Below, in pieces: positions 27,594 through 44,710 of a stretch of 64,000 bases of DNA (the first letter of the stretch is position 1; every line of letters starts with the position of its first letter). Source of the DNA: Candidatus Latescibacterota bacterium (GTDB lineage: Bacteria; Latescibacterota; UBA2968); the NCBI GenBank assembly GCA_965222605.1, contig OZ244960.1:4832001-4896000 (forward strand), written 5' to 3'. Under the pieces are notes generated by a model that did no database searches, was not told where the DNA came from, and saw only the letters and a program-made list of their open reading frames with translations. The position numbers and the translations under genes are program-made.

Positions 27594-27799
27594 TGAACTC
27601 TGATGTGTACAATAACGTCATGTGTGACTTCAGGATCAGTGGTCAGTTGCACTGTCATTCTGAGCGGAGCGTAGCGGAGTCGAAGGAGCGGTGATTGCTA
27701 TAATAAAGGGTAAAGAAAAAAGTTGAGTAAACAGGCCATAGTTGCCAAATTCGAAGATTGCAAAAAAACCATTTAATTATCTTCTTCGAGGAGGCAACC

Positions 27800-29421: not shown

Positions 29422-29524
29422 TGAAGTCACACATCATGTGTACAATAATATTTCGGGACAATATTGAAGATTGAGTGGACGAAGCAATCTCAATTCGAAA
29501 CCAGTATCCGAATGGCGCAGTACC

Positions 29525-29977
29525 ATGACCGAAAACAGGACACAGTTTGACGAGGAGTCATCCGCAGTCCACGCTCATCTTTCCATCATGCAGGGCGTAA
29601 TCCAGCGGATGGCGGAGAATAGTCGTTACTGCAAGACCTGGTGCATCATAATAGTCTCGGCTGTCCTCATTTTCGTAGCGTGGGTAGAGAAGCCTGACTA
29701 CATACTGATCGCTCTGGTTCCGACGGTCCTATTCCTATTTCTCGACACGTACTATTTGGCTCTGGAACGCGGCTTCAGAGCATCTTATGAAATATTTGTT
29801 GAGAAGTTACATGTAGCCGATGAAGACATATCTTCGGACCTTTATGTTGTGAGGCTGACCGGTTCAATCCGAAGTCATTTCTTGCGAAGTCTGTTATCCC
29901 CTGCAATTTGGCCCTTCTATCTCATGCTATTCCTCATGATAGGAATACTGTTCTTTTGGCTAGCAAGATGCGCGTGA
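29525..29977 (+). CDS. small 3-TM membrane protein (HLxxxQxVIxRMAxNS...KxW type), putative defence effector
   Basis: Hydrophobic helices, LDTYYLALER motif and position inside the R-M operon. Confidence 0.7.
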   Translation: MTENRTQFDEESSAVHAHLSIMQGVIQRMAENSRYCKTWCIIIVSAVLIFVAWVEKPDYILIALVPTVLFLFLDTYYLALERGFRASYEIFVEKLHVADEDISSDLYVVRLTGSIRSHFLRSLLSPAIWPFYLMLFLMIGILFFWLARCA

Positions 29978-29999: not shown

Positions 30000-30308
30000 A
30001 TGGCAATGAAATCTTTAGACCAACATATCGAGATTACCCCCGGTATATGCAGCGGCAAGCCGCGTATTGCCGGCCATCGCATTACCGTGGCGCACATCGC
30101 CATCTGGCATGAACGCATGGGCAAATGTGCAGATGAAATCGCCACAGAATACGATTTGACACTGGCCGATGTGTATGCAGCATTGGCCTACTATTTTGAT
30201 CACCGCGAGGAGATTGACCAATCGATTCAAGAGAGTGAAGAATTTGTGAAGGCCTTCCGCCAACAGACCTTCTCAAAGCTGGCTGAAAAGCTGCAAGAAA
30301 AGAGATAA
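30000..30308 (+). CDS. DUF433 antitoxin (VapB45-like), copy 1
   Basis: IEITPGICSGKPRIAGHRITV...LTLADVYAALAYY. Confidence 0.92.
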   Translation: MAMKSLDQHIEITPGICSGKPRIAGHRITVAHIAIWHERMGKCADEIATEYDLTLADVYAALAYYFDHREEIDQSIQESEEFVKAFRQQTFSKLAEKLQEKR

Positions 30309-30309
30309 T

Positions 30310-30648
30310 GTGGCGAAGATTAAATTCTACACGGATGAGCATATCTCAAACTCTGTGGGGATGGGGCTTCGCCAAAGGGGCGTGGATGTATTGACTGTTC
30401 CAGAAGCGGGAATGCGGGGCGCATCTGACGAAGATCATTTGAGAAAGGCGTGGGAAGAAGGGCGCGTATTCTTTACGCAAGATGATGATTTTCTCCGCTT
30501 GGCAGCAGCAAGTGTAGATCATGCTGGAATTGTTTACGCAACTCAAGCATATACGATTGGCACAATTATCTCTGGTTTAATGTTAATCCATGAGGTATTG
30601 GAAGCGGACGAGATGATCGGTCATGTAGAGTATCTCATCAGAATATGA
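30310..30648 (+). CDS. DUF5615 PIN-like toxin (VapC45-like)
   Basis: FYTDEHI, GASDEDHL, FTQDDDF and HAGI. Confidence 0.9.
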   Translation: MAKIKFYTDEHISNSVGMGLRQRGVDVLTVPEAGMRGASDEDHLRKAWEEGRVFFTQDDDFLRLAAASVDHAGIVYATQAYTIGTIISGLMLIHEVLEADEMIGHVEYLIRI

Positions 30649-30758
30649 TAGTATGACTGACCTCAGTGGAACCGCGAGACAACTAACGCATCTGGTGGCA
30701 CTATTCGGCTGGCTTCCTGTTGACACGGACAAAACCCGACGGAGGAATTGAGATAGCA

Positions 30759-31067
30759 ATGAAATCTTTAGATCAACATATTGAGATTACCCCCGGTATA
30801 TGCAGCGGAAAGCCTCGTATTGCTGGCCATCGAATTACTGTGGCAAATATTGTCATCTGGCATGAGTACATGGGCAAATGTGCAGATGAAATCGCTACGG
30901 AATACGATTTGACACTGGCCGATGTGTATGCGGCGTTGGCCTACTATTTCGATCACCTCGATGAGATCAATCAATCGATTGAAGAGAGTAAAGAATTTGT
31001 GAGGACCTTACGCCAACGAACCTTTTCAAAGCTCGCTGAAAAGCTTCAAGAAAAGAGAGGTACCTGA
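30759..31067 (+). CDS. DUF433 antitoxin, copy 2
   Basis: Near-identical paralog of 30000-30308; its first ATG is changed to ATA. Confidence 0.88.
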   Translation: MKSLDQHIEITPGICSGKPRIAGHRITVANIVIWHEYMGKCADEIATEYDLTLADVYAALAYYFDHLDEINQSIEESKEFVRTLRQRTFSKLAEKLQEKRGT

Positions 31068-31865
31068 ATGCAGTTTCAACATTACAATCTCGGACACCAA
31101 TCACAAGGTGCTGTTGTTGAAGTAACATTGTCGGGAAATGCCGCCAATGTTCGGCTACTTGATAGCACAAACTTCCAAAATTATCGCTCTGGTCGTACAC
31201 ATCGTTGTATCGGTGGTCTAATTAGACGTTCTCCTGCTCGTTTGACGATTCCACACACAGGAAATTGGCATGTAGTTGTTGACTTCCAAGGCCTGCGAGG
31301 TCAATGCCGTTCTTCGGTTCGTGTAATTCCCCGGACAGCACTGTCTCCACTCCCAGAATATTCATCCTCGTCCTCACTATCACCTCTGGTGAAGGCTGTA
31401 CACCAAGAAAACTCTACCGAGCGTACACTTGAAGGTTCTGGGCAATCTGAACATTATGACGTCTTCATTTGTCACGCTACTGAAGATAAGGACGACATTG
31501 TACGTCCGCTGACCAACGCACTAATTGCAGAGGATCTTAGGGTTTGGTACGACGAATTTGAACTTCGAATAGGTGACAGCCTGCGCCGAAAAATTGATAG
31601 TGGTCTCTCACGGAGCCGATTCGGAGTAGTTATAATTTCACATTCCTTTTTTGCGAAAAACTGGACTCAATACGAATTGGATGGACTCGTGACACGAGAA
31701 ATGACTGGTGAACAGGTAATTCTTCCGATTTGGCACCAAATCAGTAAGAGTGAGGTTATTGAAAAGAGTCCTTCGCTGGCGGACAAAGTCGCTCGCAACA
31801 CTTCGGAATTCACTATCGACGAGATTGCATGCGAAATCGCTGAAGTCACAAGGGCAAGTTTGTAA
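31068..31865 (+). CDS. DUF1883-TIR domain protein (putative NADase)
   Basis: N-terminal ANVRLLD..NFQNYRSG; TIR YDVFICHATEDK...WYDEF...GDSLRRKIDSGL...WTQYELDGL with catalytic Glu. Confidence 0.88.
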   Translation: MQFQHYNLGHQSQGAVVEVTLSGNAANVRLLDSTNFQNYRSGRTHRCIGGLIRRSPARLTIPHTGNWHVVVDFQGLRGQCRSSVRVIPRTALSPLPEYSSSSSLSPLVKAVHQENSTERTLEGSGQSEHYDVFICHATEDKDDIVRPLTNALIAEDLRVWYDEFELRIGDSLRRKIDSGLSRSRFGVVIISHSFFAKNWTQYELDGLVTREMTGEQVILPIWHQISKSEVIEKSPSLADKVARNTSEFTIDEIACEIAEVTRASL

Positions 31866-31886
31866 ATCCTAGCTGGATAATGTCAT

Positions 31887-33224
31887 ATGATGTCCAACCT
31901 TAAACCCTACCCCCACTACAAACCCTCCGGTGTTAAGTGGCTCGGTGATGTGCCTGCCCATTGGGATGTGCAACGGCTTAAGTATCTATTGCAGGAGAGA
32001 GACATCCGATCTGCTGACGGAAGCGAGCAGTTGCTTAGTGTGTCACAATACACCGGGGTCACGCAGCGTAAGCGAGTAGATGGTGGAGATAACCCTGACA
32101 CTCGAGCAGAATCATTGATCGGCTACAAGTGTGTCGAACACAATGACCTTGTAGTGAATATCATGCTCGCCTGGAATGGTAGCATGGGCGTTTCACAATT
32201 CCGTGGTATTGCGAGTCCTGCTTACTGTGTCTACCGATTTTTGGCTGGTGTAAATCCATGGTTCTTTCACTATCTACTTCGTTCGCCGATTTACAAGGCA
32301 TATATCAAAACGGCATCCACTGGTGTAGTGGATAGTAGGCTTCGTTTGTACACTGATGATCTCTATTGTCTTTATGCTTTTGTCCCTCCCCTCGCTGAAC
32401 AAACCGCCATCGTCCGTTATCTCGACCAAGCCGATGAACGCATTCGTCGCTACGTCAGCAGCAGGGAGCGGCTTATCGAACTGTTGGAGGAATATCGGCA
32501 GGCGGTCATCCACCACGCAGTCACGCGCGGCCTTGCTCCCGATGTGCGCCTCAAGCCCTCGGGTGTGGAGTGGCTTGGTGATGTGCCAGCGCATTGGGAG
32601 GTGAGGCGGCTACGCTACTTGGTGAAAGGAAAACTGACATACGGTGCCAATGCTGCGGCTGAATATACAGACCCCGATTGGCCTCGCTATTTGCGGATTA
32701 CAGATTTTGATCAGGATGGAGTACTCAAAAGCAATACGTTTCGATCTCTACCTCCACAGGTAGCGAGAGATTACTTAGTTCAACCTGGAGATATTTTATT
32801 GGCACGGAGTGGTGCCACAGTGGGAAAAGCATTCTTAGTTCCAGCAGATGCTGGCGAAGCATGTTATGCTGGCTATTTGATCCGTGTCCGTCCTCATCGG
32901 TCACTAATCGAACCGCACTTTCTATTCGCTTTCACTCAAAGCACAGGCTTTACTCATTGGAAGAACTCGGCATTTATTTTATCCACAATTCAGAATATCA
33001 GTGCCGAGAAGTATGCTAATTTGCACGTTCCGTGTCCGCCGTTATCGGAACAGTTACAGATTATTCGCTATCTCGACAAGGCGACTGCTGATATTGACGC
33101 CACTATTGACCGCGCCCGGCGAGAAATTGGGTTGCTGGGCGAATACCGCACGCGGCTGATTGCCGATGTGGTTACGGGCAAAGTAGATGTGCGCGAGGCA
33201 GCGGCAGAGTTGTCCGCTGTTTAA
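31887..33224 (+). CDS. hsdS: type I R-M specificity subunit
   Basis: Two KPSGVxWLGDVPAHW repeats, two PPLxEQ spacers and a C-terminal LIADVVTGKVDVR. Confidence 0.95.
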   Translation: MMSNLKPYPHYKPSGVKWLGDVPAHWDVQRLKYLLQERDIRSADGSEQLLSVSQYTGVTQRKRVDGGDNPDTRAESLIGYKCVEHNDLVVNIMLAWNGSMGVSQFRGIASPAYCVYRFLAGVNPWFFHYLLRSPIYKAYIKTASTGVVDSRLRLYTDDLYCLYAFVPPLAEQTAIVRYLDQADERIRRYVSSRERLIELLEEYRQAVIHHAVTRGLAPDVRLKPSGVEWLGDVPAHWEVRRLRYLVKGKLTYGANAAAEYTDPDWPRYLRITDFDQDGVLKSNTFRSLPPQVARDYLVQPGDILLARSGATVGKAFLVPADAGEACYAGYLIRVRPHRSLIEPHFLFAFTQSTGFTHWKNSAFILSTIQNISAEKYANLHVPCPPLSEQLQIIRYLDKATADIDATIDRARREIGLLGEYRTRLIADVVTGKVDVREAAAELSAV

Positions 33225-33859
33225 TGGATAGAAATAGAGGTTATATGGACAATCGAGCAGTTCTTAAGATGACGCCCGGACGCGCCGCGCTGGTGGGGCT
33301 GATGAATTGCTATCTTCGCGGCTTAATGGATCCATTCGTGACGCTGCTGGAAGTGCATAAGCTCATGTATTTTATGCAGGCTGCAGGCGAGCCGTTGAAA
33401 CTGCAATTCGCCAAAGGCACTTATGGCCCTTATGCTGAGAACCTGCGGCATGTGTTGAACGCTGTTGATGGGTATCTGGTATCCGGATATGCCGATGGCG
33501 GCGATGCCCCCGATAAGGAATTGGAATTGGTTCCGGGTGCGCTCGATGATGCCCATGCGTTTCTCGAAACCGCACCTGAAACGCAGGCGTGCTTTGAAAG
33601 GGTTTCCGCGCTTATTGAAGGGTTCGAGTCGTCGTTTGGTCTGGAATTGCTCTCTACGGTGCATTGGATCGCCAGCGAGGAGAAGATATTGGTCTTTGAC
33701 GACATCGTGAATTACGCTTACGCTTGGAACGAAAGAAAGAAACAGTTTTCGCGGCGTCAGATTAAGATCGCATTTGATATTTTGTTGGAGAAGGGATGGA
33801 TTGAGCATCCCGATGTGGGTGAGACAGCGCATCCGGGCAGGACATCTCACAAAAAATAA
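33224..33859 (+). CDS. stand-alone DarG C-terminal domain (macrodomain absent)
   Basis: MTPGRAAL...EVHKLMYFMQ..GEPL.L.F...YGPYAENLRHVL...GFES.FGLELLSTVHW matches the DarG C-terminal half as recalled; TAATG coupling to hsdS. Confidence 0.8.
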   Translation: MDRNRGYMDNRAVLKMTPGRAALVGLMNCYLRGLMDPFVTLLEVHKLMYFMQAAGEPLKLQFAKGTYGPYAENLRHVLNAVDGYLVSGYADGGDAPDKELELVPGALDDAHAFLETAPETQACFERVSALIEGFESSFGLELLSTVHWIASEEKILVFDDIVNYAYAWNERKKQFSRRQIKIAFDILLEKGWIEHPDVGETAHPGRTSHKK

Positions 33860-34116
33860 GTAAAGAAAACGAGTCTGAAAAAGGATATTATAGAAAAGGA
33901 AAATATATAAATATTTGTTTTAAAAAGACTTGTTCTTTACTAAATTTTAGAATATTTTGAGATTTTAGTAAAGGATTTAGTAAAGAAGCGTTGTTTTTCA
34001 AACTCTTAATCGACTGTGGGCCTGAATCTTTTAACTTTGTTTGATGGTTGTTTGATGGAAAACCCGAAAAATGATTCGGCAAAGCAGGTTCAATTTTTTA
34101 ACTTATTGTTATACAA

Positions 34117-35502
34117 CAATGGTTCGGACAGTTTTAAGCGGCGATATTGCCATAATTGAGTAGATATTGATATTGAGACGATTTTTTTATGCAATTAAGG
34201 TCGAGATCAAACATTGAAAAAATCTTTTCGAGGAAAAATGTGTTGAAATAACAGGCTTTAATGCTTGCCATAGAAAAAGGGTTTGGCAGGGTATCGCAAT
34301 CGGCTTTTATGTGCTCTACTTTGGCTAAATTGAGAGTTGAAAGAGATGCATTGAAATGGAAATCAAGGCGTTTCTTATCTCTTGTCTGAGCGTTGGACAA
34401 GCCTGTAAACTGTTTGGCATCTCGAAAAATAAATTCAATCTGGAAACGCGCTTTGTAATACGTGAGGATTGTTTTTGCATCCAAGTTCTTATCGGTAGAA
34501 AACAAGAGGGCATAATTTTTCTTATCTTTGATCTTCTCAGTGACCAGGACGACGACTTTGACATTGCGTTTGAAGCATTGATGATTCAGCACCAAGCTGT
34601 AAAGCGCGATCCCATCTTGTGTGTGATGATAGGTAAAGCGCGATAAGTCTTGCCAGTCGACTTTTCCATCGTAAGTCTTTTGGTTGCCACTGCCTTTCTC
34701 ACGCTTGGGGCCTGTGTAAAGATAACGCATGTTGGCATCGCATCGCAGTTTGCCGATTTGGTGTAGCTTGAGGTTGGCGACGCCATCAATGAATTTCTTC
34801 TTGCTAAAATAGCCATCCACCGCGAGATATGTTTCATCGGCTTCGAGGCAAGGGTGGACCTCTCGCAGGTGCGCTAAATACTGGTCTATTCGGGTTTCAT
34901 CCTCTGTTTGGGCGTTCTTATTCGTCTTTGTGGCAGTGGTTTTTTTCTGCTTCGCGGTGTCCGTTTTGGGTACGGTTTGACAAACCGATAGGGTAAAGCC
35001 TGTGTTTTTGTCCACATCCACAAGCGCAACCCCCAAGATTTCTAAGCCCTTTTCTCGACGCGACTGGCAGCCATTCCAAAAGTGATCCAGGCCATAGGTC
35101 TTTTTGCCAGCCTTGGGCACAAAGGACGCATCTAAGACCAGAATACGCCCATGTGCTTGGTCTTGGTCTCTGCTTTCATTGATGATGGCACGGTTGAAAT
35201 CCATAAATCGAAAGGGCTTGTCAAACTGACGGGTGTATGTGCGTTCGCAAAGGTGAGAATACCGTGACAGGTTGCGAAAATTGATTTTGCCTCGTGCAAT
35301 CAGTATGGTAGTAAATAGGGTCATGAGAAACTTTTTTTGGGGCTTGGAAATGTTGAGCCGATTGAGTATCTTTTTTGCGATTGCCATTGTGCCGTCTCAC
35401 TCGTTTGGGTTGTCAGTGATCTGGAATATCTTTGACATCCAATCTGCGTGAACGGCACTTTTTTGTCTATTCTTTTTTTACTCAAAACTGTCCGAAGTAT
35501 TG
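34117..35502 (-). mobile_element. IS4/IS701-like insertion sequence, 1386 bp
   Basis: 19-bp TIR (17/19) caatggttcggacagtttt/aaaactgtccgaagtattg; 6-bp TSD ATACAA at 34111 and 35503. Confidence 0.92.
34134..35387 (-). CDS. DDE transposase
   Basis: VLDASFVPKAGK, AVDGYF and YKARFQIEFIFRDAKQ (YREK) motifs. Confidence 0.93.
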   Translation of the reverse strand: MAIAKKILNRLNISKPQKKFLMTLFTTILIARGKINFRNLSRYSHLCERTYTRQFDKPFRFMDFNRAIINESRDQDQAHGRILVLDASFVPKAGKKTYGLDHFWNGCQSRREKGLEILGVALVDVDKNTGFTLSVCQTVPKTDTAKQKKTTATKTNKNAQTEDETRIDQYLAHLREVHPCLEADETYLAVDGYFSKKKFIDGVANLKLHQIGKLRCDANMRYLYTGPKREKGSGNQKTYDGKVDWQDLSRFTYHHTQDGIALYSLVLNHQCFKRNVKVVVLVTEKIKDKKNYALLFSTDKNLDAKTILTYYKARFQIEFIFRDAKQFTGLSNAQTRDKKRLDFHFNASLSTLNLAKVEHIKADCDTLPNPFSMASIKACYFNTFFLEKIFSMFDLDLNCIKKSSQYQYLLNYGNIAA

Positions 35503-35598
35503 ATACAACTGTTTACTGTTTTGTAATTTGTTTGATGGTTGTTTGATGGAAAGCCAAATGACCATTGACACCACCGAGCGCGGTGCGGAGGTTTTGAC

Positions 35599-37077
35599 AT
35601 GAACGGTCAACGTTCCCCCGAGTACCTGGAAGGTCTTCTCCGAGAGCTATGTGCTTTGCCGCACGAGACCGAGTGGTTAGAATTTAAGGAAGGCGACACC
35701 GACCCACAGGAGATCGGCGAGTATCTTTCTGCCCTTGCCAACTCGGCTGCACTTGTGGGCAAAGCCGCGGCTTATCTGGTGTGGGGTGTGCGCGATCAAG
35801 ACCACGCAGTCGTGGGGAGCAACTTCGATCCCAGGTCCGCCAGGAAGGGAAATGAGGAACTGGAAAATTGGCTGTTGCGTTTGCTTGAACCGAAGATTGA
35901 TTTTCATTTTTTTCCCTTGAGTACCGAGAAGGGGTCAGTCATTCTGACGGAAATTAACCGGGCTACGCGGCATCCGGTGCGCTTTGCTGGTCAGGAATAC
36001 ATCCGCGTGGGCAGCTATAAGAAAAAACTCAAGGATCATCCCGAAAAAGAACGGGCACTGTGGCGCATTTTTGACCAGACGCCATTCGAGGAAGGCGTAG
36101 CACTTGAACGGGCAACGGGCGACGATGTTGTTCGCCTGCTGGATTGTCAGGCATATTTCGACCTGCTGGAACTGCCACAGCCGAGGACCCAGCGCGGCCT
36201 TCTTGAGGTACTGGCAAGCGACGAATTGATCCGGCCTTCGGTCGCAGGTGGATGGGACATCACCAATCTCGGGGCGATACTCTTTGCCAAAGATCTCGAC
36301 GATTTTCGAACCTTGCGTCGAAAGGCCGTGCGTGTCATTCATTACAAGGGCAGTGGCCGGTTGGAGACCTTGAAGGAACGCGAAGTGCCCAAGGGCTATG
36401 CCTGTGGATTTGAAGGGCTGAACGAATACATCCACGCGTTATTACCGGAGAACGAGGTTATTGAACAGGCTCTACGTCGAACAGTAGCGACATTCCCAAT
36501 CGTAGCCGTGCGCGAACTGGTCGCCAACGCACTCATCCATCAGGATTTTTCGATTACTGGCGCAGGGCCAATGGTAGAAATATTCGATCGACATCTGGAG
36601 ATTACCAACCCCGGCGTGCCCCTCGTTGATATCGACCGATTGGTGGATGCGGCACCGAAATCGCGCAATGATAAACTGGCATCGCTCATGCGGCGCTTCA
36701 ACTTGTGTGAGGAGCGCGGCAGCGGCATCGACAAGGTGGTATTCCAAGTTGAGTTGTTCCAACTTCCTGCGCCGTTGTTCGAGACACCAGGAGACGCTAC
36801 CCGTGCCACGCTTTTTGCGCCTAAGGCACTGAGAGACATGGGGCGGCAGGAACGGATTCGCGCCTGTTATTTTCACGCCTGTCTGAATTATGTGATGAAC
36901 AAACCTGTCACCAACACCTCAATTCGCAGGCGATTTGGCATCCCGGACCACAATGCTTCGACAGCCTCACGGCTACTGAGTGAAGCCGTCGAAGCGGGTT
37001 TCATCGCCGTTGAGGAGGTCAACAGCGGCACCAGGAATCGCCGCTATGTGCCCTTCTGGGCTGCCCAGGCAGATTGA
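35599..37077 (+). CDS. Schlafen/AlbA_2 + HATPase_c_4 + wHTH protein
   Basis: ETEWLEFKE, SALAN, RELVANALIHQDF, EITNPG, RN..LA and EERGSGI. Confidence 0.88.
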   Translation: MNGQRSPEYLEGLLRELCALPHETEWLEFKEGDTDPQEIGEYLSALANSAALVGKAAAYLVWGVRDQDHAVVGSNFDPRSARKGNEELENWLLRLLEPKIDFHFFPLSTEKGSVILTEINRATRHPVRFAGQEYIRVGSYKKKLKDHPEKERALWRIFDQTPFEEGVALERATGDDVVRLLDCQAYFDLLELPQPRTQRGLLEVLASDELIRPSVAGGWDITNLGAILFAKDLDDFRTLRRKAVRVIHYKGSGRLETLKEREVPKGYACGFEGLNEYIHALLPENEVIEQALRRTVATFPIVAVRELVANALIHQDFSITGAGPMVEIFDRHLEITNPGVPLVDIDRLVDAAPKSRNDKLASLMRRFNLCEERGSGIDKVVFQVELFQLPAPLFETPGDATRATLFAPKALRDMGRQERIRACYFHACLNYVMNKPVTNTSIRRRFGIPDHNASTASRLLSEAVEAGFIAVEEVNSGTRNRRYVPFWAAQAD

Positions 37078-37083
37078 CGGCCA

Positions 37084-37260
37084 TTTGTTTGATGGTTGTT
37101 TGACGGTTGCTTGATGGTTGTTTGATAGAAAACCCGAAAAATGACTCAGTAGAGCAGATTCGATTTTTTAAATTATTGTTATTAAAATACTTACTGTTTT
37201 GTAATTTGCTTGATGGTTGTTTGATAGAAACCAAATGATCATCGACATTACCGAGCGCGT
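37084..37260 (+). repeat. direct repeat copy 2 with 4+2 tandem 11-mers
   Basis: ttgtttgatgg ttgtttgacgg ttgcttgatgg ttgtttgatag, then two more copies 99 bp downstream. Confidence 0.9.
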
Positions 37261-37427
37261 TTGATGTCTATTGCAGAGCGTCCCGATATTGGATATACTC
37301 TCACAGACTGGAATAGGCCCTGATGAGGCCACGCGAAATAATTTGGGGTGGAGGTCTTTGAAGAGGCTATGGAAGAATTGGGTGATGTGAAGATTGTGGT
37401 AGAGGACAACAATAAAGGTTGAAACCC

Positions 37428-38591
37428 ATGAGTAGCCGACGCTTGCAAATAACATTGCAGCCTGCTGTGTTGAGGTGGGCGCGGGAGCGGGCGCGCATTG
37501 ATGCTGAGCAATTGGCGGACAAGATGCAGGTGAAGCCGGAGCGCGTGTTGGATTGGGAGCGCGATGGCAAGATCAGTATAGCCCAGGCAGACAGACTTGC
37601 TCAACGCACGCATACCGCTCTGGGCTTACTATACTTGACAGAGCCGCCCAAAGACCTTTTGCCAATACCCGATTTTCGCGCCCGTGGCAATGAGCAGCAA
37701 CCGAGTGTCAATCTCCTCGAGACTATTTATCTTATGCAGCGTCGTCAAGCCTGGATGCGCGAGGAGTTGATCGGGGAAGGTGCCAGGCCGCTGAATTTTA
37801 TTGAGAGTTATGAGATAGATGGCGATCCCCTGCAAGTCGCCAGTGCGATGCGCGATGCACTCCAACTTGCTGACGATTGGGCAGCATCTGTATCTAACTG
37901 GTCTAATGCACTTGGGCATTTGCGGAGTAGAGCCGAGGATGCCGGTGTGCTGGTGGTTTTCAATGGCGTTGTGGGGAACAATACAAGCCGCAAACTCGAT
38001 CCAGATGAATTTCAGGGCTTTGCTCTCGTAGATGAGTATGCCCCGTTGGTCTTTGTGAACAATGCCGACTTCAAAGCAGCGCAGATGTTCACCCTGGCTC
38101 ACGAACTCGCACATCTTTTTGTGGGAAAGACCGGGGTATCCTGTTTTGAAGATCTCCAGTCCGCATCCAATGACACAGAGAAATTTTGTGATCAGGCAGC
38201 AGCGGAGTTTTTGGTGCCAGAGGCGGAGTTGCGTGATTTTTGGCCTACAGCTAAGCAGGCAAGCAATCCTTATGAGTCTGTTGCACGTCAATTCAAAGTG
38301 AGTTCTCTCGTAGCCGCACGCCGAGCGTGCGACCTCGGCTTGATTGACGCGGATGACTTTTTCGAATTTTATAAAAAATATATGGATAAGGAATGGTACA
38401 GTCAGCAAAGTCAAGCAAGTGGTGGAAATTTCTGGAATACTCAGAAATGGCGCATCGGCACCCGATTTGGCACTGCAATCTTTCGTGCGGTCAAGGAAGG
38501 CCGTCTGCTTTATCGCGAGGCGTACAATCTCACCGGTCTAAAGAGGGAGACTTTTGAAAACATGCCAGAAAAGATGGGGATATCGGTGTGA
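37428..38591 (+). CDS. XRE-HTH + ImmA/IrrE zinc metallopeptidase
   Basis: VLRWARER HTH; FTLAHELAH (HExxH); EKFCDQAAAEFLVP. Confidence 0.9.
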   Translation: MSSRRLQITLQPAVLRWARERARIDAEQLADKMQVKPERVLDWERDGKISIAQADRLAQRTHTALGLLYLTEPPKDLLPIPDFRARGNEQQPSVNLLETIYLMQRRQAWMREELIGEGARPLNFIESYEIDGDPLQVASAMRDALQLADDWAASVSNWSNALGHLRSRAEDAGVLVVFNGVVGNNTSRKLDPDEFQGFALVDEYAPLVFVNNADFKAAQMFTLAHELAHLFVGKTGVSCFEDLQSASNDTEKFCDQAAAEFLVPEAELRDFWPTAKQASNPYESVARQFKVSSLVAARRACDLGLIDADDFFEFYKKYMDKEWYSQQSQASGGNFWNTQKWRIGTRFGTAIFRAVKEGRLLYREAYNLTGLKRETFENMPEKMGISV

Positions 38592-39109
38592 TAAATCAGG
38601 CTCCATCCTTGTTCGTGCTGGATACAAATGTTTTTATAGAGGCGCATCGTCGCTATTACGCGCAAGACCTATGCCCGGGATTCTGGGATTGTCTGACGTA
38701 TTATTGTGGCGAGGGGCGGGTGTTAAGCATTGATCGCGTTCGTGCCGAAATACTCAGTAGTCCAGATCAACTATCTCAGTGGATCAACCAAGCACCGAGC
38801 AATCTATTTGTCTCATCAGCGGAACCATCAGTTGTAAATACTTTTACGAACATGATGAACTGGGTACAGGGGAATAATCAGTTTCTGCCTGCAGCAAAAA
38901 TGGATTTCGCAAATGTAGCTGATGGGTGGCTCGCGGCCTACGCGAGGGTTCACAACGCGGTTGTGGTTACTCAAGAGGTATATAGTCCAGGCGTGAGGAA
39001 AAGGGTACCCCTGCCAAATGTATGTAGGCAGTTTGATGTTGATTATCGAGACACTTTTGCGATGTTGCGCGAACTTGAGGTCAGTTTTGACTGGAGACGT
39101 TCTCCATGA
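38588..39109 (+). CDS. DUF4411 PIN-domain protein
   Basis: VLDTNVFIEA..RYY, ADGWLAAYA, VVTQE and LPNVC; 4-nt overlap with the peptidase gene. Confidence 0.88.
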   Translation: MINQAPSLFVLDTNVFIEAHRRYYAQDLCPGFWDCLTYYCGEGRVLSIDRVRAEILSSPDQLSQWINQAPSNLFVSSAEPSVVNTFTNMMNWVQGNNQFLPAAKMDFANVADGWLAAYARVHNAVVVTQEVYSPGVRKRVPLPNVCRQFDVDYRDTFAMLRELEVSFDWRRSP

Positions 39110-39134
39110 CCACTTTGACCTGAGTTGCCATCCA

Positions 39135-39326
39135 GTACTTGATTGGTACTTGACTGGTACTTGACTGACGACCAACGATGCGAGGTCACATTTTCCATAA
39201 GTTATTGAATATACGACGGTTATTTTATTTGACTGGTACTTGACTGACGATCAGGGATATGAGATCGTATTTTTCATAAACTGTTGAATATACGACGGTT
39301 ATTTTTCTTGACTGGTACTTGACTGA
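39135..39326 (+). repeat. 79-bp period tandem repeat built on gtacttgactg 11-mers
   Basis: ttgactggtacttgactga at 39150, 39229 and 39308; ttgaatatacgacggttatttt occurs twice. Confidence 0.92.
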
Positions 39327-39342
39327 AACCCCATTTCGAACG

Positions 39343-39408
39343 ATATATTTTCGTACTCGAAAAGCAATCCGAAGTGAGAGAGTAAGGTATGAAGGATCGG
39401 GATATTAA
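39343..39408 (+). pseudogene. putative 3' remnant of a brnT toxin gene
   Basis: Reads IYFRTRKAIRSERVRYEGSGY*, resembling the BrnT end IISARKAxxxERxxYE; its TAT-GAA codons overlap the next ATG. Confidence 0.5.
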
Positions 39409-42400
39409 ACTAACACAAGCTCAGAGAGAAGATTTGGACGCGCTTGCGGCGCTGCCCGATGACGAGATAGATACCTCTGATATTCCCGAGGTTTCCGGGG
39501 GGTCTAATTCTGTACGCGGGCTGTTTCATAAGTCCGCCAGTGAGCGGAGTAAGGCGATGGATGAACTTAGAAGCGGACGTCCGTCGGTTACGGATACCTC
39601 TGAACGCGGTTTGGAAGATCGCATTTGCGAGATGTTGGCTGGTAGGGCGGATGAATCGAGTGCGGGTGATGTCGGGGAACGTCCGGCTACTTATGATGTG
39701 GGTTGGCGTTATGGGGATCGCGAGGATTACGACCGCGAGGATTGCGTGGATCTGGCGCAGTTGACGGCTTTTCTGAAGGCGACGCAGCCGAAGGTTGCTG
39801 ACGCGCTGTCTTTGGAGAGCGATGATCCGACGCGGCGCCGGTTTCTCGCCCGGCTGAAGAGCGAGGTTGGCAGGCGCGGTATTGTCGATGCGCTTCGCAA
39901 AGGCGTCAAGCACGGGCCGTATGATATTACGCTTTTTTACGGCGCGCCGTCGCCGGGCAACCGACGGGCAGCGGAGTTTTACGAACAGAATCGCTTTTCG
40001 GTCACGCGCCAGTTGTCATATAGCAATGCCAATAAGCGGCTTGCGCTTGATCTTGCGCTGTTTATCAATGGCTTGCCGGTGGCGACTTTTGAGTTGAAAA
40101 ATAGTCTCACCAAACAGACGGTGGCAGATGCGGTTGAGCAGTACAAACGCGATCGAGATCCGAGGGAGGAACTTTTTCGCATTGGTCGTTGTTTGGCGCA
40201 CTTTGCCGTAGATGAACACGAGGTGATGTTCTGTACGCATCTCAGGGGCAAGTCGTCCTGGTTCCTGCCTTTCAATAAGGGTTGGGATGACGGCGCTGGC
40301 AATCCGCCTAATCCCAATGGTCTCAAGACCGATTATCTGTGGCAGGAGGTTCTGACCCGGCAGAGTTTGACCGATATTATCGAAAATTACGCTCTGCTGG
40401 TGGAATCTGCCGATGTAAAGACGGGGCGCAAGACGCGGACGCAGATTTGGCCGCGCTATCACCAACTGGATGTGGTGCGAAAATTACTGGCGGATGCTGG
40501 AAAAAACGGAGCGGGGCCGCGCTATCTTATCCAGCATTCGGCGGGTAGCGGGAAGTCCAATTCCATCGCCTGGTTGGCGCACCGGCTCATCGGGCTGGAA
40601 AAGGGTGGTGAGACGGTTTTTGATTCTATGATTGTTGTAACTGATCGGATTATTCTGGACCGGCAGATCAATGATACCATCCGGCAATTCGCGCAAGTGG
40701 GTGCGACGGTTGGGCATGCCGAAAGATCTGGCGACTTGCGGCGCTTTATCGACGAAGGTAAGAAAATTATTATTTCTACCGTGCAGAAGTTTCCGTTTAT
40801 TCTGGATGAGATTGGGACAGATCATCGAGGAAGCCGATTTGCCATCATAATTGACGAAGCGCATTCCAGCCAGGGTGGGCGCACGTCCTCGGCGATGGCG
40901 CAGGCACTGGGCGACCATGAGGACGGGGATGATGACGATACTTTTGAAGATAAGATCAACCGCATCATTGAGCAAAAGCGTCTGTTGACCAATGCCAGTT
41001 ATTTTGCCTTTACCGCTACGCCAAAGAATAAGACGCTGGAGTTATTTGGCACACCGTCGCCGCAGCCCGATGGCGCGACAAAGCATCGGTCGTTCCACAA
41101 CTATGCGATGAAACAGGCGATTGAGGAGGGGTTTATTCTGGATGTGCTGGGTAATTATACGCCGGTAACGAGCTACTACCATCTCGCCAAGACGATAGCA
41201 GATGACCCGGAATTTGATACGAAAAAGGCGAAGAAAAAGCTCATCCACTATGTGGAAACACACAGCCATGCCATCCGACTCAAAGCGGAGATTATGGTTG
41301 ATCACTTCCACGAGCAGGTGCTGGCACCGCGCAAAATCGGCGGACAGGCGCGGGCGATGGTCGTAACCGGTGGTATTCAGATGGCGATTGAATACTATCA
41401 CGCCATCCGCGACTATCTGAACGAGCGCAATAGCCCGCACAAAGCTATTGTCGCCTTCTCCGGTGAGACGGATTACGGCGGTGAGAGGGTGAGTGAAGCG
41501 TCGTTGAACGGTTTTCCGTCATCGCAGATTGCCAACAAGATTCAGGAAGATCCCTATCGGCTTCTGGTCTGCGCGGATAAGTTTCAGACGGGCTACGACG
41601 AGCCTCTGCTGCATGTGATGTACGTAGATAAGGTGCTGTCTGGTATCAAAGCAGTGCAAACTCTCTCGCGTCTCAACCGCGCCCACCCCGATAAGCGCGA
41701 TACGTTTGTGCTGGATTTCTACAATGACACTGACATGATAAAGGACGCTTTTGCTGACTACTACCGCACGACTATTTTGGCGGATGAAACCGATCCCAAC
41801 AAGTTGCACGATCTCAAGGCTGCGCTGGATGGCCGGCAGGTTTATTCCGATGAGCAAGTCCAAAATTTAGTAGAGTCGTATTTGAATGGCGATGACCGCG
41901 GGGCTTTCGATCCAATTCTGGACGTCTGCGTGGCGGTCTATCGAAGTGAGCTGGATGAGGACGGGCAAGTTGAATTTAAGGGCAATGCCAAAGCGTTTGT
42001 CCGTTCCTACACCTTCTTAGCTCAAGTGCTTCCCTATGAGAATGTAGCGTGGGAAAAGCTTTCCATTTTTTTGAATTTTCTCGTTCCGAAGCTGCCGACG
42101 CCCGTTACTGAAGATATGTCGCTGGGTATTGAAGGTGCTATTGATATGGATAGCTATCGCGCCGAGAAACAGGCGACGATGCATATTCTGCTGTCTGATG
42201 AGGATGCCGAAATCGAGCCGGTGCCCACAGGTGGTGGCGGCCATAAGCCAGATCCGGAAATGGACCGGCTTTCCAATATTCTCCAGGCGTTTAACGACCT
42301 TTTTGGCGATATTCCGTGGACCAATGAAGACCGCATACGCAGAATGATTACCGAGGATGTTCCGAGGATGGTTGATGCTGATAGTGCCTATCGCAATGCG

Positions 42401-42568
42401 CGGGAACACTCAGATGATCAGAATACGCGCATTGAACACGATAAGGCATTGGAGAAAGCGATCATGGCCCTGCTCACGGATGATACCGAACTCTACAAGC
42501 AATACTCTCAGAATGAAGCGTTTAAGCGTTGGCTGGAAAATAGCGTGTTCGAACTGACCAATCGCTAA
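39389..42568 (+). CDS. hsdR: type I R-M restriction subunit with BrnA-like N-terminal extension
   Basis: LDLALFINGLPVATFELKN, QHSAGSGKS, IIDEAH, FTATP and KFQTGYD; the usual start region TDTSERGLE lies about 67 aa in. Confidence 0.95.
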   Translation: MKDRDIKLTQAQREDLDALAALPDDEIDTSDIPEVSGGSNSVRGLFHKSASERSKAMDELRSGRPSVTDTSERGLEDRICEMLAGRADESSAGDVGERPATYDVGWRYGDREDYDREDCVDLAQLTAFLKATQPKVADALSLESDDPTRRRFLARLKSEVGRRGIVDALRKGVKHGPYDITLFYGAPSPGNRRAAEFYEQNRFSVTRQLSYSNANKRLALDLALFINGLPVATFELKNSLTKQTVADAVEQYKRDRDPREELFRIGRCLAHFAVDEHEVMFCTHLRGKSSWFLPFNKGWDDGAGNPPNPNGLKTDYLWQEVLTRQSLTDIIENYALLVESADVKTGRKTRTQIWPRYHQLDVVRKLLADAGKNGAGPRYLIQHSAGSGKSNSIAWLAHRLIGLEKGGETVFDSMIVVTDRIILDRQINDTIRQFAQVGATVGHAERSGDLRRFIDEGKKIIISTVQKFPFILDEIGTDHRGSRFAIIIDEAHSSQGGRTSSAMAQALGDHEDGDDDDTFEDKINRIIEQKRLLTNASYFAFTATPKNKTLELFGTPSPQPDGATKHRSFHNYAMKQAIEEGFILDVLGNYTPVTSYYHLAKTIADDPEFDTKKAKKKLIHYVETHSHAIRLKAEIMVDHFHEQVLAPRKIGGQARAMVVTGGIQMAIEYYHAIRDYLNERNSPHKAIVAFSGETDYGGERVSEASLNGFPSSQIANKIQEDPYRLLVCADKFQTGYDEPLLHVMYVDKVLSGIKAVQTLSRLNRAHPDKRDTFVLDFYNDTDMIKDAFADYYRTTILADETDPNKLHDLKAALDGRQVYSDEQVQNLVESYLNGDDRGAFDPILDVCVAVYRSELDEDGQVEFKGNAKAFVRSYTFLAQVLPYENVAWEKLSIFLNFLVPKLPTPVTEDMSLGIEGAIDMDSYRAEKQATMHILLSDEDAEIEPVPTGGGGHKPDPEMDRLSNILQAFNDLFGDIPWTNEDRIRRMITEDVPRMVDADSAYRNAREHSDDQNTRIEHDKALEKAIMALLTDDTELYKQYSQNEAFKRWLENSVFELTNR

Positions 42569-42579
42569 CGCCAAATACG

Positions 42580-42636
42580 CCGCGTAGTTTAAAAAACAGC
42601 CCGTCTAAAAAATTGGATGGGTTATTTTTTTATTCG
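42580..42636 (+). repeat. hairpin direct repeat, left of the second Schlafen gene (terminator-like)
   Basis: ccgcgtagtttaaaaaacagcccgtctaaaaaattggatgggttatttttt. Confidence 0.85.
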
Positions 42637-42640
42637 CAGT

Positions 42641-42686
42641 CTTGAAGATGCGGGCAAAGTTGACTATACTAAACGCAGCCTTGAAT
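42641..42686 (+). promoter_or_regulatory. sigma70-like promoter module, copy 2
   Basis: TTGAAG-N17-TATACT; homologous to 27548-27593. Confidence 0.7.
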
Positions 42687-42787
42687 ATGCGTTCTTTGAG
42701 TGTCTGGGCGAGAACAGTGTCGCGGACATTCTGACGTTGGTGCGGAGGCAAAGGGCTATTGAGCCAAATTATCGCAGGCGGTTTCTA

Positions 42788-44710
42788 ATGGCAGAACTAC
42801 GATTCGACATCACGCCGTTTCTGAATCAAGACGAAGGTCAGCACTTTGATCGCAAGTCTTTGTATGAAGGGATAGGTGAGGCCAAACGGTCACGTAATCG
42901 CCGCGCCGTGCGGGACCAGGTTGCGGAGTACATCGCTGCTTTCGCTAATGCCGAAGGTGGCGTATTGATCCTGGGCATAGAGGATGACCGCACCATTACT
43001 GGACACCGGCTACCGCAGGATGCCTTGAGCAATATCCTGAATACCCCGGGCACTCGTTTGCAGCCCGCACAACCCGATGGTTTTATTATGCATGTTGAAG
43101 GGCGCGAACTGATTGTTTTTGATGTACCGGCTTCGGATGTTCCCGTTCAAGTAATCGGGGATGGATTCCCGTTGCGAATGGGTGACCAGACAGTGCAATC
43201 CAGCGAGAGCCAAATCAATACGCTCAAGTTTGAAGGTATGGCGGAGAGTTGGGAAAGCCGACGGTCATCAATTACTTTGGCTGATTTGGATGAGCGACTG
43301 TTAGAGCGCGCGCGACAAGGGGCGGGTTTATCCGCTTTGAGTGATGAGGAGTACTTGCTCAAGCGCAAATTGGCCGACCGCCGTGGGCAAGGGATCGTGC
43401 TTCGAAATGCTGCGGAGTTGCTCTTTGCCCGTTATGGACCGGACCATCCCAATGCCGGTGTTCGCCTTTTTCGCGTCATTGGCACCCAGCGACATACTGG
43501 ACCCGAGCACAATGTCGAAGAACGCCCGCGTTGTGAAGGCAACTTGCCTGCGGTCATATCGGAAATTCGCACTGTCATCAGCAGTTTGCTGCGACGTCCT
43601 ATGCGGCTCGTGGGTAGCCGCTTTCAGGAATCCGCCGAATATCCGGATTTTGCGTGGCTGGAGGCATTGCTCAATGCCATCGCGCACCGCGATTATAGAG
43701 TTGAAGGCGCAGGCATTGAGGTCTGGCTATTCGATGACCGCATGGAAGTGGTCAGTCCCGGCGGTCTGGTAGGCAACTTGACTACAGAAGAGTTGCTCAC
43801 GCTCAAGCGCGTTCATCACAGCCGCAATCCTCGCGTTATTCGAGTGCTTGTAGATCTCGGTCTCGCACGCGACCAGGGCGAGGGTATTCCGCGGATGTTT
43901 GCAGAGATGGAAGACGCTTTTTTGCCAAGGCCAGATATAGATGCTACCAACCGAAGTGTTACAGTTACGCTTCGGAATACGCTTACCCTAAATGCTATCG
44001 ATCGAGAATTTATCTCGGCTCTCGGCGACCTTGAGCTTTCTCGCAATGAGTTTCGGACATTGCTTTACACCTATCGTCATGGTCAGATAGACAATGCCAG
44101 GTTGCGTGCTTTATCCGGTCTCGACACTTTAAATGCCAGTTACCTTTTGCGCGGCCTCCGCGACCGGGATTTGTTGGCGCTTCATTCTCACGGTCCCAAC
44201 AGCTACTACACACTGACTTCTGTTCTGACATCGAAAGTTGGAGATTACAAAGCGAAAGGTGAGGAGCTCGGCACGGATGCAGAGGAGTTCAGTACGGATA
44301 TAGAGGAGCTCGGCACGGATGCAGAGGAGTTCAGTACGGATATAGAGGAGCTCGGCACGGATGCAGAGGAGTTCAGTACGGATATAGAGGAGCTCGGCAC
44401 GGATGCAGAGGAGTTCAGTACGGATACGGGTAAGCTTCCCAACGACATCAAAGCAGCTATTGACCAACTTGGCCGGCGACCACGTCGAGAGAATCTACGC
44501 CCCGTCATTCGTGCAATATGCGATCAAGGGAGATGGGTAACTTCCGCTGAACTCGCCCAACTCCTCAACTTCCACCAAAATAACCTGATGTCGGCACACA
44601 TCACTCCGATGATACATAGCGGAGAACTTGAGTCACGCTTTCCAGACAAGCCTAATCATCCTCGCCAAGCTTACCGAGCCGTTGTATCCCAACACCCTGA
44701 AACAAGTTAG
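42788..44710 (+). CDS. Schlafen/AlbA_2 + HATPase_c_4 + wHTH protein with acidic repeat linker
   Basis: EGQHFDRKS, AAFANAEGGVLILGI, EALLNAIAHRDY, EVVSPGG, GEGIPRM and C-terminal PDKPNHPRQAY. Confidence 0.88.
   Translation: MAELRFDITPFLNQDEGQHFDRKSLYEGIGEAKRSRNRRAVRDQVAEYIAAFANAEGGVLILGIEDDRTITGHRLPQDALSNILNTPGTRLQPAQPDGFIMHVEGRELIVFDVPASDVPVQVIGDGFPLRMGDQTVQSSESQINTLKFEGMAESWESRRSSITLADLDERLLERARQGAGLSALSDEEYLLKRKLADRRGQGIVLRNAAELLFARYGPDHPNAGVRLFRVIGTQRHTGPEHNVEERPRCEGNLPAVISEIRTVISSLLRRPMRLVGSRFQESAEYPDFAWLEALLNAIAHRDYRVEGAGIEVWLFDDRMEVVSPGGLVGNLTTEELLTLKRVHHSRNPRVIRVLVDLGLARDQGEGIPRMFAEMEDAFLPRPDIDATNRSVTVTLRNTLTLNAIDREFISALGDLELSRNEFRTLLYTYRHGQIDNARLRALSGLDTLNASYLLRGLRDRDLLALHSHGPNSYYTLTSVLTSKVGDYKAKGEELGTDAEEFSTDIEELGTDAEEFSTDIEELGTDAEEFSTDIEELGTDAEEFSTDTGKLPNDIKAAIDQLGRRPRRENLRPVIRAICDQGRWVTSAELAQLLNFHQNNLMSAHITPMIHSGELESRFPDKPNHPRQAYRAVVSQHPETS
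44261..44426 (+). repeat. in-frame 42-bp tandem repeat (about 4 copies)
   Basis: gaggagctcggcacggatgcagaggagttcagtacggatata, encoding EELGTDAEEFSTDI. Confidence 0.97.

Follow-up and report, generated by a model that had tools for sequence, protein, structure and literature searches.

Three antitoxin parts in one type I restriction-modification operon of a Candidatus Latescibacterota bacterium

Gene content of the operon

The DNA analysed, referred to here as the window, is a stretch of 64,000 nucleotides from Candidatus Latescibacterota bacterium (assembly GCA_965222605.1, contig OZ244960.1, positions 4,832,001-4,896,000, forward strand). The comparison sample consists of 21 genomes of the same Latescibacterota genus; the organism's own genome is labelled G000. 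The window contains a type I restriction-modification (R-M) operon in an island flanked by two housekeeping genes, mdh on the left (24327-25253) and a PRA-PH-like gene on the right (45276-45782).

The operon is intact; hsdM, hsdS and hsdR share one orientation and all three frames are open. At the left end, hsdM (25367..27502, plus strand) encodes 711 aa and matches Pfam N6_Mtase (E 9.5e-51) and HsdM_N (E 1.3e-21). The hsdS gene (31887..33224, plus strand; 445 aa) matches PADLOC Specificity_I (E 1e-118). The hsdR product (39389..42568, plus strand) has 1059 aa including an N-terminal extension; it matches TIGR00348 positions 103-670 from residue 198, as well as Pfam HSDR_N, SWI2_SNF2 and ResIII.

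Two IS elements are found in the operon, both between genes and neither inside hsdM, hsdS or hsdR. An IS110-family transposase gene (27758..29068, plus strand; Pfam DEDD_Tnp_IS110 and Transposase_20) is inserted 3' of hsdM. An IS4-like DDE transposase gene (34134..35387, minus strand; Pfam DDE_5 and DDE_Tnp_1) lies within an intergenic repeat region; this element is missing in a relative, where an RNA-library contig joins 34110 to 35503. Evidence of expression is confined to RNA-library contigs of relatives (90-95% identity), with DNA carry-over possible; they cover parts of the locus, and neither their gaps nor their depth values are informative. A scan for promoters and terminators gives sites that are no commoner than in shuffled sequence.

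Several accessory genes, all on the plus strand, are interspersed. A PDC-M50A-type defence candidate (29471..29977; 168 aa; PADLOC PDC-M50A, E 1e-28) has homologues upstream of a TIR gene also in loci L092 and L096. A DUF1883-TIR defence gene (31068..31865; Pfam DUF1883 and TIR_2; PADLOC PDC-S66, E 8e-72) precedes hsdS. Downstream of hsdS are an AlbA_2/HATPase_c_4 gene (35599..37077; 492 aa; Pfam) and a complete pair formed by an HTH-peptidase M78 repressor/antitoxin of ImmA/IrrE type (37419..38591; Pfam Peptidase_M78 and HTH_3; NCBIfam spr1629 family; PADLOC RmrA and capP) and its DUF4411 partner (38588..39109; Pfam E 1e-48), the two ORFs overlapping. An AlbA_2/HATPase_c_4/Fic-like_C gene (42617..44710; Pfam) forms the right end of the island.

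Direct repeats TTGACTGGTACTTGACTG occur within a 79-nt tandem unit at 39139..39325 (plus strand), where relatives hold brnT; the pattern has 10 matches against 0 expected. Related repeats are located at 34022-34112, 35513-35557 and 37081-37235.

The first-pass annotation had reported three antitoxin parts in this operon. All three are real: a second DUF433 gene, a DarG C-terminal domain and a BrnA N-terminus on HsdR.

DUF433 genes

The first DUF433 gene, DUF433a (30000..30308, plus strand; Pfam E 9e-20), is the antitoxin of a complete DUF433/PIN pair. Its DUF5615/PIN-like toxin partner (30310..30648, plus strand; Pfam DUF5615 E 8.6e-16, PIN_10) has counterparts within the genus in just two genomes, G000 and G089 (identity at least 94%). 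The DUF433/DUF5615 pair was labelled VapBC45 in the first-pass annotation.

DUF433b (30759..31067, plus strand; Pfam E 7.7e-19) is 87% identical to DUF433a but, unlike it, has no PIN toxin downstream. Its ATG at 30759 is preceded by GGAGG, while the mechanically called ORF starts at a TTG at 30720. Its stop codon abuts the start of the DUF1883-TIR gene (TGAATG). Copy a with its PIN-like neighbour fits the known pair, whereas copy b and most copies in the genus precede unrelated defence genes: there are 11 copies of the window type in nine genomes, only two of them with PIN downstream, and the others precede a KAP NTPase, AAA_15/21, nSTAND (twice), a 210-aa gene or AAA_21. A conserved pairing of DUF433b with TIR was rejected, as DUF433 is nearby in none of 80 homologous TIR loci.

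Across these contexts the DUF433 proteins are 74-99% identical, with dN/dS of 0.02-0.26 across copies; between DUF433b and five other copies dN/dS is 0.12-0.26 at dS of 0.31-0.48. Judged by conservation and gene order, DUF433 is a conserved gene directly upstream of swappable defence genes (PIN, TIR, KAP, STAND and ABC-type ATPases) and no stray fragment. DUF433b is neither the spare described earlier nor in decay.

A stand-alone DarT-binding domain of DarG

Directly downstream of hsdS lies a gene for a stand-alone DarG C-terminal (DarT-binding) domain, CTD (33224..33859, plus strand; 211 aa), recognised by NCBIfam, PADLOC and PDB matches. It aligns with positions 158-337 of 338 of NCBIfam DarG (NF048014; E 7e-51); the lack of the macrodomain brings the score (173 bits) under the cut-off of 250 bits, and the protein has no Pfam Macro match. 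Positions 154-328 of 329 of PADLOC DarG are matched, and residues 16-188 align with residues 1-186 of the crystallised C-terminal domain 7yk3_B (E 1.6e-21). The ATG overlaps the hsdS stop codon (TAATG); the gene directly upstream is hsdS, not darT. The junction is identical in the window and in loci L010 and L011, and in every copy with this junction the CTD start overlaps the hsdS stop.

A full darT-darG pair occupies this site in three of the 21 genomes of the genus. At the same position, the relatives L016 and L054 (HsdR 91% identical) carry DarT (Pfam E 4e-60) and a macrodomain-containing DarG. The CTD alone, without DarT, is present in six genomes; five of the six copies are intact and one is broken by an in-frame TGA. 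Two genomes contain only a 66-aa remnant of the CTD, and the DarG-type C-terminal domain is missing from the remaining ten (no match in seven, a distant macrodomain match only in three). The genus forms a decay series leading from the full pair to the CTD only, the CTD with a stop codon, the 66-aa remnant and finally nothing.

Searches with tblastn and with proteins find DarT nowhere in G000. Three further CTD-only genomes that were tested gave no match either, while both genomes with the full-length genes, serving as positive controls, did; absence rests on these searches, as a Pfam DarT scan was blank for the controls as well. Within the genus, no genome has full DarT except the three with full DarG.

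Among the five intact CTD-only genes, dN/dS is 0.14-0.31 in ten non-independent pairs (dS 0.21-0.35; binomial p 1e-4 to 5e-12). These values indicate that the DarG piece is maintained by selection. A quick tree was built with 83 of 120 database proteins, 37 being left out; the hsdS/CTD junction is present in 37 of the 83. All 40 junction rows fall inside one clade of 44 (SH-aLRT 93). Two full-length DarG rows, L016 and P0042, nest within this CTD-only clade in the quick tree, so recombination with functional alleles could import part of the low dN/dS.

A BrnA-type segment at the N-terminus of HsdR

Codons 1-56 of hsdR (39389..39556, plus strand) form an in-frame segment of BrnA type, identified by phmmer and 7vd7_B. 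Residues 1 to about 50 resemble the toxin-binding N-terminal half of BrnA: phmmer ties residues 1-66 to genuine, Pfam-positive BrnA proteins (e.g. P0156, P0190 and P0145), and the segment matches 7vd7_B, an antitoxin chain of 44 residues (E 8.8e-4). Pfam BrnA (PF14384) has no match to this tail at E values up to 10, nor in the genome scan. Residues that are invariant or nearly so among BrnA relatives are retained. The RHH-type region (BrnA profile positions about 23-68) is absent and the sequence continues into HsdR; position 39556, the end given in the first-pass annotation, closes the codon before an internal hsdR ATG (M57), which has its own GGAG.

Of a deleted brnT, the final 16 codons are left, and they overlap the hsdR start (39358..39405, plus strand; tblastn with residues 79-94 of L016 BrnT, 81% identity). 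In L016, a locus from a genus genome, BrnT is intact (Pfam E 1.5e-23, positions 1-77 of 77) and overlaps the start of the fused hsdR. The same overlap is seen in L193 from Dehalococcoidia (HsdR 70% identical), where a BrnT frame of 103 codons is open but lacks any ATG, GTG or TTG close to where it begins. In L237 and L240 (Dehalococcoidia/SAR202), BrnT is followed by the same tail fused to a sacsin-domain protein. The RHH half is replaced in relatives by HsdR, a sacsin-like protein or an HATPase_c_4 protein, while of the 21 loci that have this type of BrnT, 14 encode an ordinary BrnA with RHH. A JGI metagenome scan with the tail alignment gave no long fusions among 80 loci, all of them ordinary short BrnA-like ORFs, and no new fusion partners.

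Within the genus, brnT is intact in only one of 14 genomes with the tail; seven genomes have brnT remnants of 15-43 codons, and in five the tail is a 73-74-aa ORF after loss of hsdR. The tail has dN/dS of 0.13-1.24 (with only 4-11 synonymous differences per pair) versus 0.07-0.12 for the HsdR body. Since brnT is reduced to 16 codons and the tail is under relaxed constraint, the tail in the window is probably a vestige.

Both truncated parts are toxin-binding parts, as the first-pass annotation had proposed, and end at true domain boundaries (7yk3_B; 7vd7_B; PMC7003065, in excerpt). No cognate toxin gene for either is left in the organism's own genome.

Origin of the antitoxin parts

Our preferred reading, to which we give a probability of about 0.6, is that the R-M operon is an exchange site and the three antitoxin parts are leftovers of three cassettes after toxin loss. 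The 19-kb operon, from mdh to the PRA-PH-like gene, would act in the genus as a place where defence and toxin-antitoxin (TA) cassettes are inserted and exchanged. In support, among 80 loci with a relative of the DarG CTD, 25 have a homologue of this HsdR downstream and 74 a full-length DarG. A darT-darG pair (DarTG2) would once have been located between hsdS and hsdR; a single deletion would have taken darT and the macrodomain and brought the hsdS stop up against the linker between the two domains. The DarT-binding-domain gene formed in this way has been preserved ever since by purifying selection, and its product would most likely be a stand-alone inhibitor of DarT, protecting against DarTG2 alleles that still circulate at this locus within the genus.

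A brnT-brnA pair 5' of hsdR would similarly have lost its RHH half, leaving the BrnT-binding peptide as the N-terminus of HsdR. In the few relatives with intact brnT, HsdR is the sole visible neutraliser and the toxin may be tethered to it; in the window the tail would survive without brnT mainly because it now carries the hsdR start. DUF433b, as a highly conserved small gene directly upstream of interchangeable effectors, would head the TIR cassette.

In general TA biology, deletion of the neutralising part ahead of the toxin should be lethal; this would explain why the toxin-binding part was kept in each truncated case. The parts were originally treated as a possible single system. Each is better seen as the leftover of a separate TA cassette with intact forms in relatives. 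Selective retention, which had been proposed for all three, is supported for the DarG CTD (dN/dS 0.14-0.31) and holds for BrnA only historically; for DUF433 the question was mis-framed. The dN/dS comparison suggested as a check for neutral evolution likewise gives a divided result, with purifying selection on the CTD after the deletion and relaxation in the HsdR tail.

A more elaborate possibility, which we put forward tentatively, is that HsdR doubles as an antitoxin. Its BrnA peptide would hold BrnT, and destruction or blockade of HsdR by phage would free BrnT and abort the infection; the same leash would have moved to sacsin-like and HATPase_c_4 proteins. The DarG CTD would be population-level immunity that lets cells shed or resist DarTG2, and the window would be an end state in which the toxins are lost and the leashes kept. 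It is the gene architecture in L016 and L193 that suggests such R-M-guarding toxin logic.

Neutral decay of a high-turnover hotspot is an unlikely explanation. It would make the parts functionless debris, domain-sized through survivorship and ascertainment. The DarG decay series, the brnT remnants of 15-43 codons in seven genomes, the two IS elements within the operon and the relaxed constraint on the HsdR tail are all in keeping with it, as is L042, in which DarT and macro fragments are fused into a single ORF. The search for CTD-only forms was also biased towards full-length CTD matches. However, neutral decay does not predict the low dN/dS of the CTD-only genes at dS of 0.21-0.35, with five of six genus copies intact, or the DUF433 copies at 74-99% identity and dN/dS of 0.02-0.26. 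Nor does it predict that the BrnA tail, including its core motif, is conserved on HsdR down to about 50% identity in another phylum.

It is improbable that the CTD was co-opted by the R-M system for a task unrelated to DarT, such as that of a DNA mimic which is produced in concert with HsdS and might tune restriction or counter phage anti-restriction. The overlap with the hsdS stop in all copies with the junction and purifying selection in a genome without DarT agree with this idea, and the DarG domain reportedly mimics ssDNA, going by the title of Deep et al. 2023. Against it, CTD-only genes have been lost from many genus genomes that retain hsdR, and other stand-alone copies (L014 and L069) are not adjacent to hsdS.

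Least probable is an active guard in the organism's own genome, in which the HsdR tail holds one of five BrnT-family genes' products in trans, with the CTD or DUF433b holding other toxins, and R-M damage frees the toxin: four of the five genes were tested and are homologous to 7vd7_A, and the tail retains the (near-)invariant BrnA residues, but each of the five adjoins a putative antitoxin of its own (assigned by eye) with an N-terminal sequence unlike the tail, identity between the relatives' cognate BrnT and the four that were aligned is only 34-40%, there is no second match to the tail in the genome, and DarT is absent. The earlier proposal of a tether to toxins in trans thus finds no support in this genome; in the relatives L016 and L193, a tether in cis is indicated by the overlap of brnT with the fused hsdR.

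Comparison with known systems

TA cassettes within R-M operons are already known. In EPEC, DarTG2 is located between hsdS and hsdR at a site described as a potential hotspot of recombination (Zhang et al. 2025, PMC12255303, in excerpt). The window resembles this RptR-RMS-DarTG-M48 island in the hsdS/hsdR position, the DarG2 family and the full pair in L016 and L054; it differs in that darT and the macrodomain are deleted and the DarT-binding domain overlaps the hsdS stop. EPEC DarG's C-terminal domain alone binds DarT and rescues E. coli cells, according to the excerpted text of Lawaree et al. 2020 (PMC7003065). The window protein aligns end to end with this DarT-sequestering domain as crystallised (7yk3). 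The isolated domain of those studies is a laboratory construct; the window's version is a naturally occurring gene, conserved in at least five DarT-free genomes of the genus.

The HsdR tail shares with BrnT/BrnA (7vd7 and 3u97) an N-terminal peptide homologous to 7vd7_B, which brnT of relatives overlaps as usual. In contrast to that system, HsdR takes the place of the RHH half that serves DNA binding and dimerisation, and brnT of the window is down to 16 codons. The gene for the PrrC anticodon nuclease is part of a type I R-M operon, and the restriction enzyme EcoprrI is believed to keep the nuclease silent (bioRxiv 10.1101/2024.01.29.577857, in excerpt). PrrC is an ABC-ATPase nuclease without an antitoxin peptide, whereas the link here would be a covalent antitoxin segment on HsdR.

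Orphan antitoxins, or anti-addiction modules, could neutralise toxins from elsewhere (PMC11825919, in excerpt). The phage orphan anti-DarT factors AdfB and AdfM are described as NADAR-like or macrodomain enzymes in the excerpted part of PMC13309987; unlike these phage-encoded enzymes, the window gene is chromosomal and encodes a non-enzymatic binding domain.

Implications for the genus

Selection on the CTD and the presence of DarTG2 alleles in 3/21 genus genomes are indirect pointers to a possible orphan immunity role of the DarG CTD. A natural, selected gene for the lone DarT-binding domain of DarG was not met in the literature searched. The same applies to the toxin-binding peptide of an antitoxin grafted on HsdR or further large defence proteins, where some genomes still have the toxin gene in overlap. 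Should the graft be functional, it would be a simple way of making a second-line toxin depend on whether a first-line defence enzyme is intact. The locus provides a natural series of intermediates in which TA modules are dismantled without death of the host.

Island structure and gene content

The region at 25.3-44.7 kb of the window forms one island, flanked by mdh and a PRA-PH-like gene, and lies within a single 6.34-Mb contig (98.7% complete). With the exception of one IS, all of its genes are on the + strand. It opens with hsdM, IS110, a PDC-M50A-like gene and DUF433a (30000-30308) with DUF5615/PIN; next come a second DUF433 gene (DUF433b) with DUF1883-TIR, then hsdS, a 211-aa gene for the DarG C-terminal domain (CTD) and an IS4-like element on the - strand. 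The island ends with an AlbA_2/HATPase_c_4 gene, HTH-M78 with DUF4411, hsdR and a second AlbA_2 gene.

The block hsdM - (PDC-M50A) - DUF1883-TIR - hsdS (25367-33224) is repeated in the Chloroflexota loci L091-L097, where HsdM is 65-69% identical and DarG or a tailed HsdR sometimes comes next; this suggests that a composite operon may have moved between phyla. The HTH-M78 gene has its DUF4411 partner in the window and in the related locus L054; it lacks the partner in four other relatives (L011, L016, L010 and L014), where it is another antitoxin-like gene without its putative toxin in the same hotspot. The second AlbA_2 gene (AlbA_2/HATPase_c_4/Fic-like_C) carries nine copies of a 21-nt tandem repeat, encoding 7-residue units, at 44219-44468. 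An Eco57I-type (type IIG-like) R-M gene of 1345 aa is found 6 kb upstream of the island (15163-19200, - strand); molybdopterin, RNase E/G, L21 and mdh genes lie between.

A stand-alone DarG C-terminal domain

The ORF at 33224-33859 covers only positions 158-337 of the 338-position DarG model (E 7e-51), and in the alignment with 7yk3_B, the C-terminal domain solved by crystallography, its residue 16 corresponds to residue 1. The ATG and the hsdS stop codon overlap. The gene therefore opens within the linker between the two domains, so that the domain boundary is cleanly respected. The domain is reportedly an ssDNA mimic, going by the title of a 2023 study by Deep et al. As published (PMC7003065), it binds DarT on its own and is sufficient for cell rescue.

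Of 80 species-level loci that encode a protein related to the CTD protein, 74 have full-length DarG; five have short forms (L010, L011, L014, L042 and L069) and one is cut by the contig end. An HsdR homologue of the window type lies downstream at 25 of the 80, matching the layout of the darT-darG pair (DarTG2) inside a type I R-M system of EPEC as published (PMC12255303). Where the window holds the CTD alone, L016 and L054 (HsdR 91% identical) have DarT and a macro-containing DarG.

The window, L010 and L011 have the hsdS/CTD junction in common at the DNA level, despite differences in the variable parts of hsdS and in neighbouring genes. Among the best 120 matches in a large protein collection, 83 could be placed (37 lacked a match to the anchor pattern) and 37 of these 83 carry the junction. 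In a quick tree, 40/40 junction rows fall within one clade of 44 (SH-aLRT 93), in which two full-length rows and two rows starting inside the macrodomain are nested. Different N-terminal junctions in L014/P0063, P0099/P0106, P0082 and P0114 (P-numbers are database proteins) point to further independent truncations.

Retention varies within the genus. Full DarG with full DarT is found in three of 21 genomes; six have the CTD only (five intact, one with an in-frame TGA), two a 66-aa CTD remnant, three a distant macrodomain match only (about 40% identity) and seven no match. DarT was found in none of the CTD-only genomes. The decay series means that CTD retention is not permanent. The dN/dS check proposed in the first-pass annotation gives values below neutral: among the five CTD-only genes, dN/dS is 0.14-0.31 at dS 0.21-0.35, and 10/10 pairwise comparisons are far under the neutral expectation, which argues for the CTD being functional after the deletion. 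Allele exchange with functional full-length darG may contribute to these low values, since dS from the L010 CTD is 0.22 to full-length L016, against 0.26 to the CTD of the window and 0.38 to that of L011.

A BrnA-type tail on HsdR

HsdR begins with a BrnA-type toxin-binding segment (codons 1-56, 39389-39556), here called the tail. Pfam BrnA does not match the tail; an exhaustive search by phmmer, with residues 1-66 of HsdR as the query, retrieved 249 proteins. Among the 79 that were scanned, six have Pfam BrnA and one is an HsdR; the majority are short unassigned ORFs. Full BrnA (e.g. database protein P0156) and the tail are alike up to '...RGxFYRP', after which the RHH part of BrnA starts. 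In 7vd7, the antitoxin chain (44 residues) is matched by the tail, and the toxin chain is homologous to all four tested BrnT proteins of the window genome. HsdR homologues at a greater distance begin at a point that corresponds to residues 57-68 of the window protein. The window, L016 and L054 also encode an internal Met57 with a separate GGAG; L011 lacks this. Two tandem tails precede HsdR in database protein P0125 and at the Dehalococcoidia locus L194:2501-2867, where the first copy is a separate 61-aa ORF.

The cognate toxin gene survives in some relatives. L016 encodes a BrnT of 94 aa (Pfam E 1.5e-23), whose gene shares 20 nt with the beginning of the fused hsdR. The Dehalococcoidia locus L193 (HsdR 70% identical) has the order hsdM-TIR-hsdS-brnT-hsdR; its BrnT frame is open for 103 codons with the same overlap and lacks a standard start codon near its beginning. 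In L237 and L240, BrnT is intact and the next protein, which has a sacsin-domain match, carries this tail as well. Ordinary BrnA is found at 14 of 21 loci of this BrnT type, and at three of the 21 no partner was found. Long tail fusions occur at none of 80 JGI metagenome loci; the graft is therefore rare.

The tail is present in 13 of the 20 other genus genomes. It is fused to HsdR in eight genus genomes, including that of the window, and to a 489-aa HATPase_c_4 protein in two. In five it is a 73-74-aa ORF that runs a few codons into the N-terminal part of hsdR and then stops, in front of the AlbA_2 gene found next after hsdR in the window; these ORFs can be read as a probable trace of hsdR deletion. 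Among the 14 tail-bearing genomes, brnT is intact in one and reduced to 3' remnants of 15-43 codons in seven (16 codons in the window, 39358-39405); no trace was found in six. The dN/dS of the tail is 0.13-1.24, based on small counts, versus 0.07-0.12 for the HsdR body. In our reading, the tail would be a working leash for BrnT where brnT survives and, elsewhere, a tolerated vestige that provides the hsdR start.

DUF433 as a probable head gene or flank

The spare DUF433b (30759-31067) starts with an ATG at 30759 that has a GGAGG of its own, and its stop codon lies directly against the start of the TIR gene. It differs from other DUF433 copies at dS 0.31-0.48 (dN/dS 0.12-0.26); this dS rules out a recent duplicate. 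The TIR gene needs no DUF433, as none is found near its homologues at 80 loci; it stands alone between hsdM and hsdS in five Chloroflexota loci.

Nine genus genomes contain 11 copies of the window-type DUF433, with PIN downstream of only two; the remaining copies are directly upstream of a KAP NTPase, an AAA_15/21 ATPase, a 1280-aa nSTAND (twice), a 210-aa gene or an AAA_21 ATPase. The proteins are 74-99% identical across these contexts, and their two C-terminal tail types do not track the partner one-to-one. Since conserved proteins precede varied effectors, DUF433 appears to behave as a conserved gene at the head, or on the flank, of a slot in which effectors are exchanged. Candidate roles are repressor, broad antitoxin or recombination anchor.

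Intergenic repeats and RNA-library contigs

Direct repeats (TTGAYGGTTGY / TTGACTGGTAC; period 11 nt) are found at 34022-34112, 35513-35557, 37081-37235 and 39139-39325, and occur solely in the intergenic stretches that precede the AlbA_2 gene, the M78 gene and hsdR. The pattern has 10 matches versus 0 expected, on the + strand only; arrays of a like kind precede cassettes in the relatives L182, L183 and L186. The repeats might serve as operators, with the HTH-M78 protein as a candidate binder, or might mark the junctions of cassettes. The IS4-like element (34134-35387) is lodged inside one repeat region.

RNA-library contigs from three studies match at 90-95% identity and hence come from relatives. 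They cover the CTD (33245-33893) and hsdR (39488-40000); one CTD contig extends into hsdS with a junction of 171 nt instead of 28 nt, and a contig joins 34110 to 35503 without the IS and continues into the AlbA_2 gene. These contigs weakly indicate expression of the CTD, the AlbA_2 gene and hsdR, as they record presence only and may reflect DNA carry-over. The deepest contigs or transcripts in two RNA runs are of the IS.

Three parts, probably from three cassettes

Neither a natural stand-alone DarG C-terminal-domain gene nor a BrnA-HsdR fusion is described in the literature searched, which included PMC7003065, PMC12255303, bioRxiv 10.1101/2024.01.29.577857, PMC11090510 and PMC13309987. The first-pass annotation reported three toxin-less antitoxin parts in one R-M operon, and this observation is confirmed. 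It also proposed that the parts had been selectively retained as a possible guard or anti-addiction system, which is partly right. Toxin-binding parts are indeed kept, at domain boundaries, and the DarG piece at least is under selection; the three are not one designed system but the leftovers of three independent cassettes. That the binding part is the one retained would be expected in large measure if deletions of other kinds are lethal.
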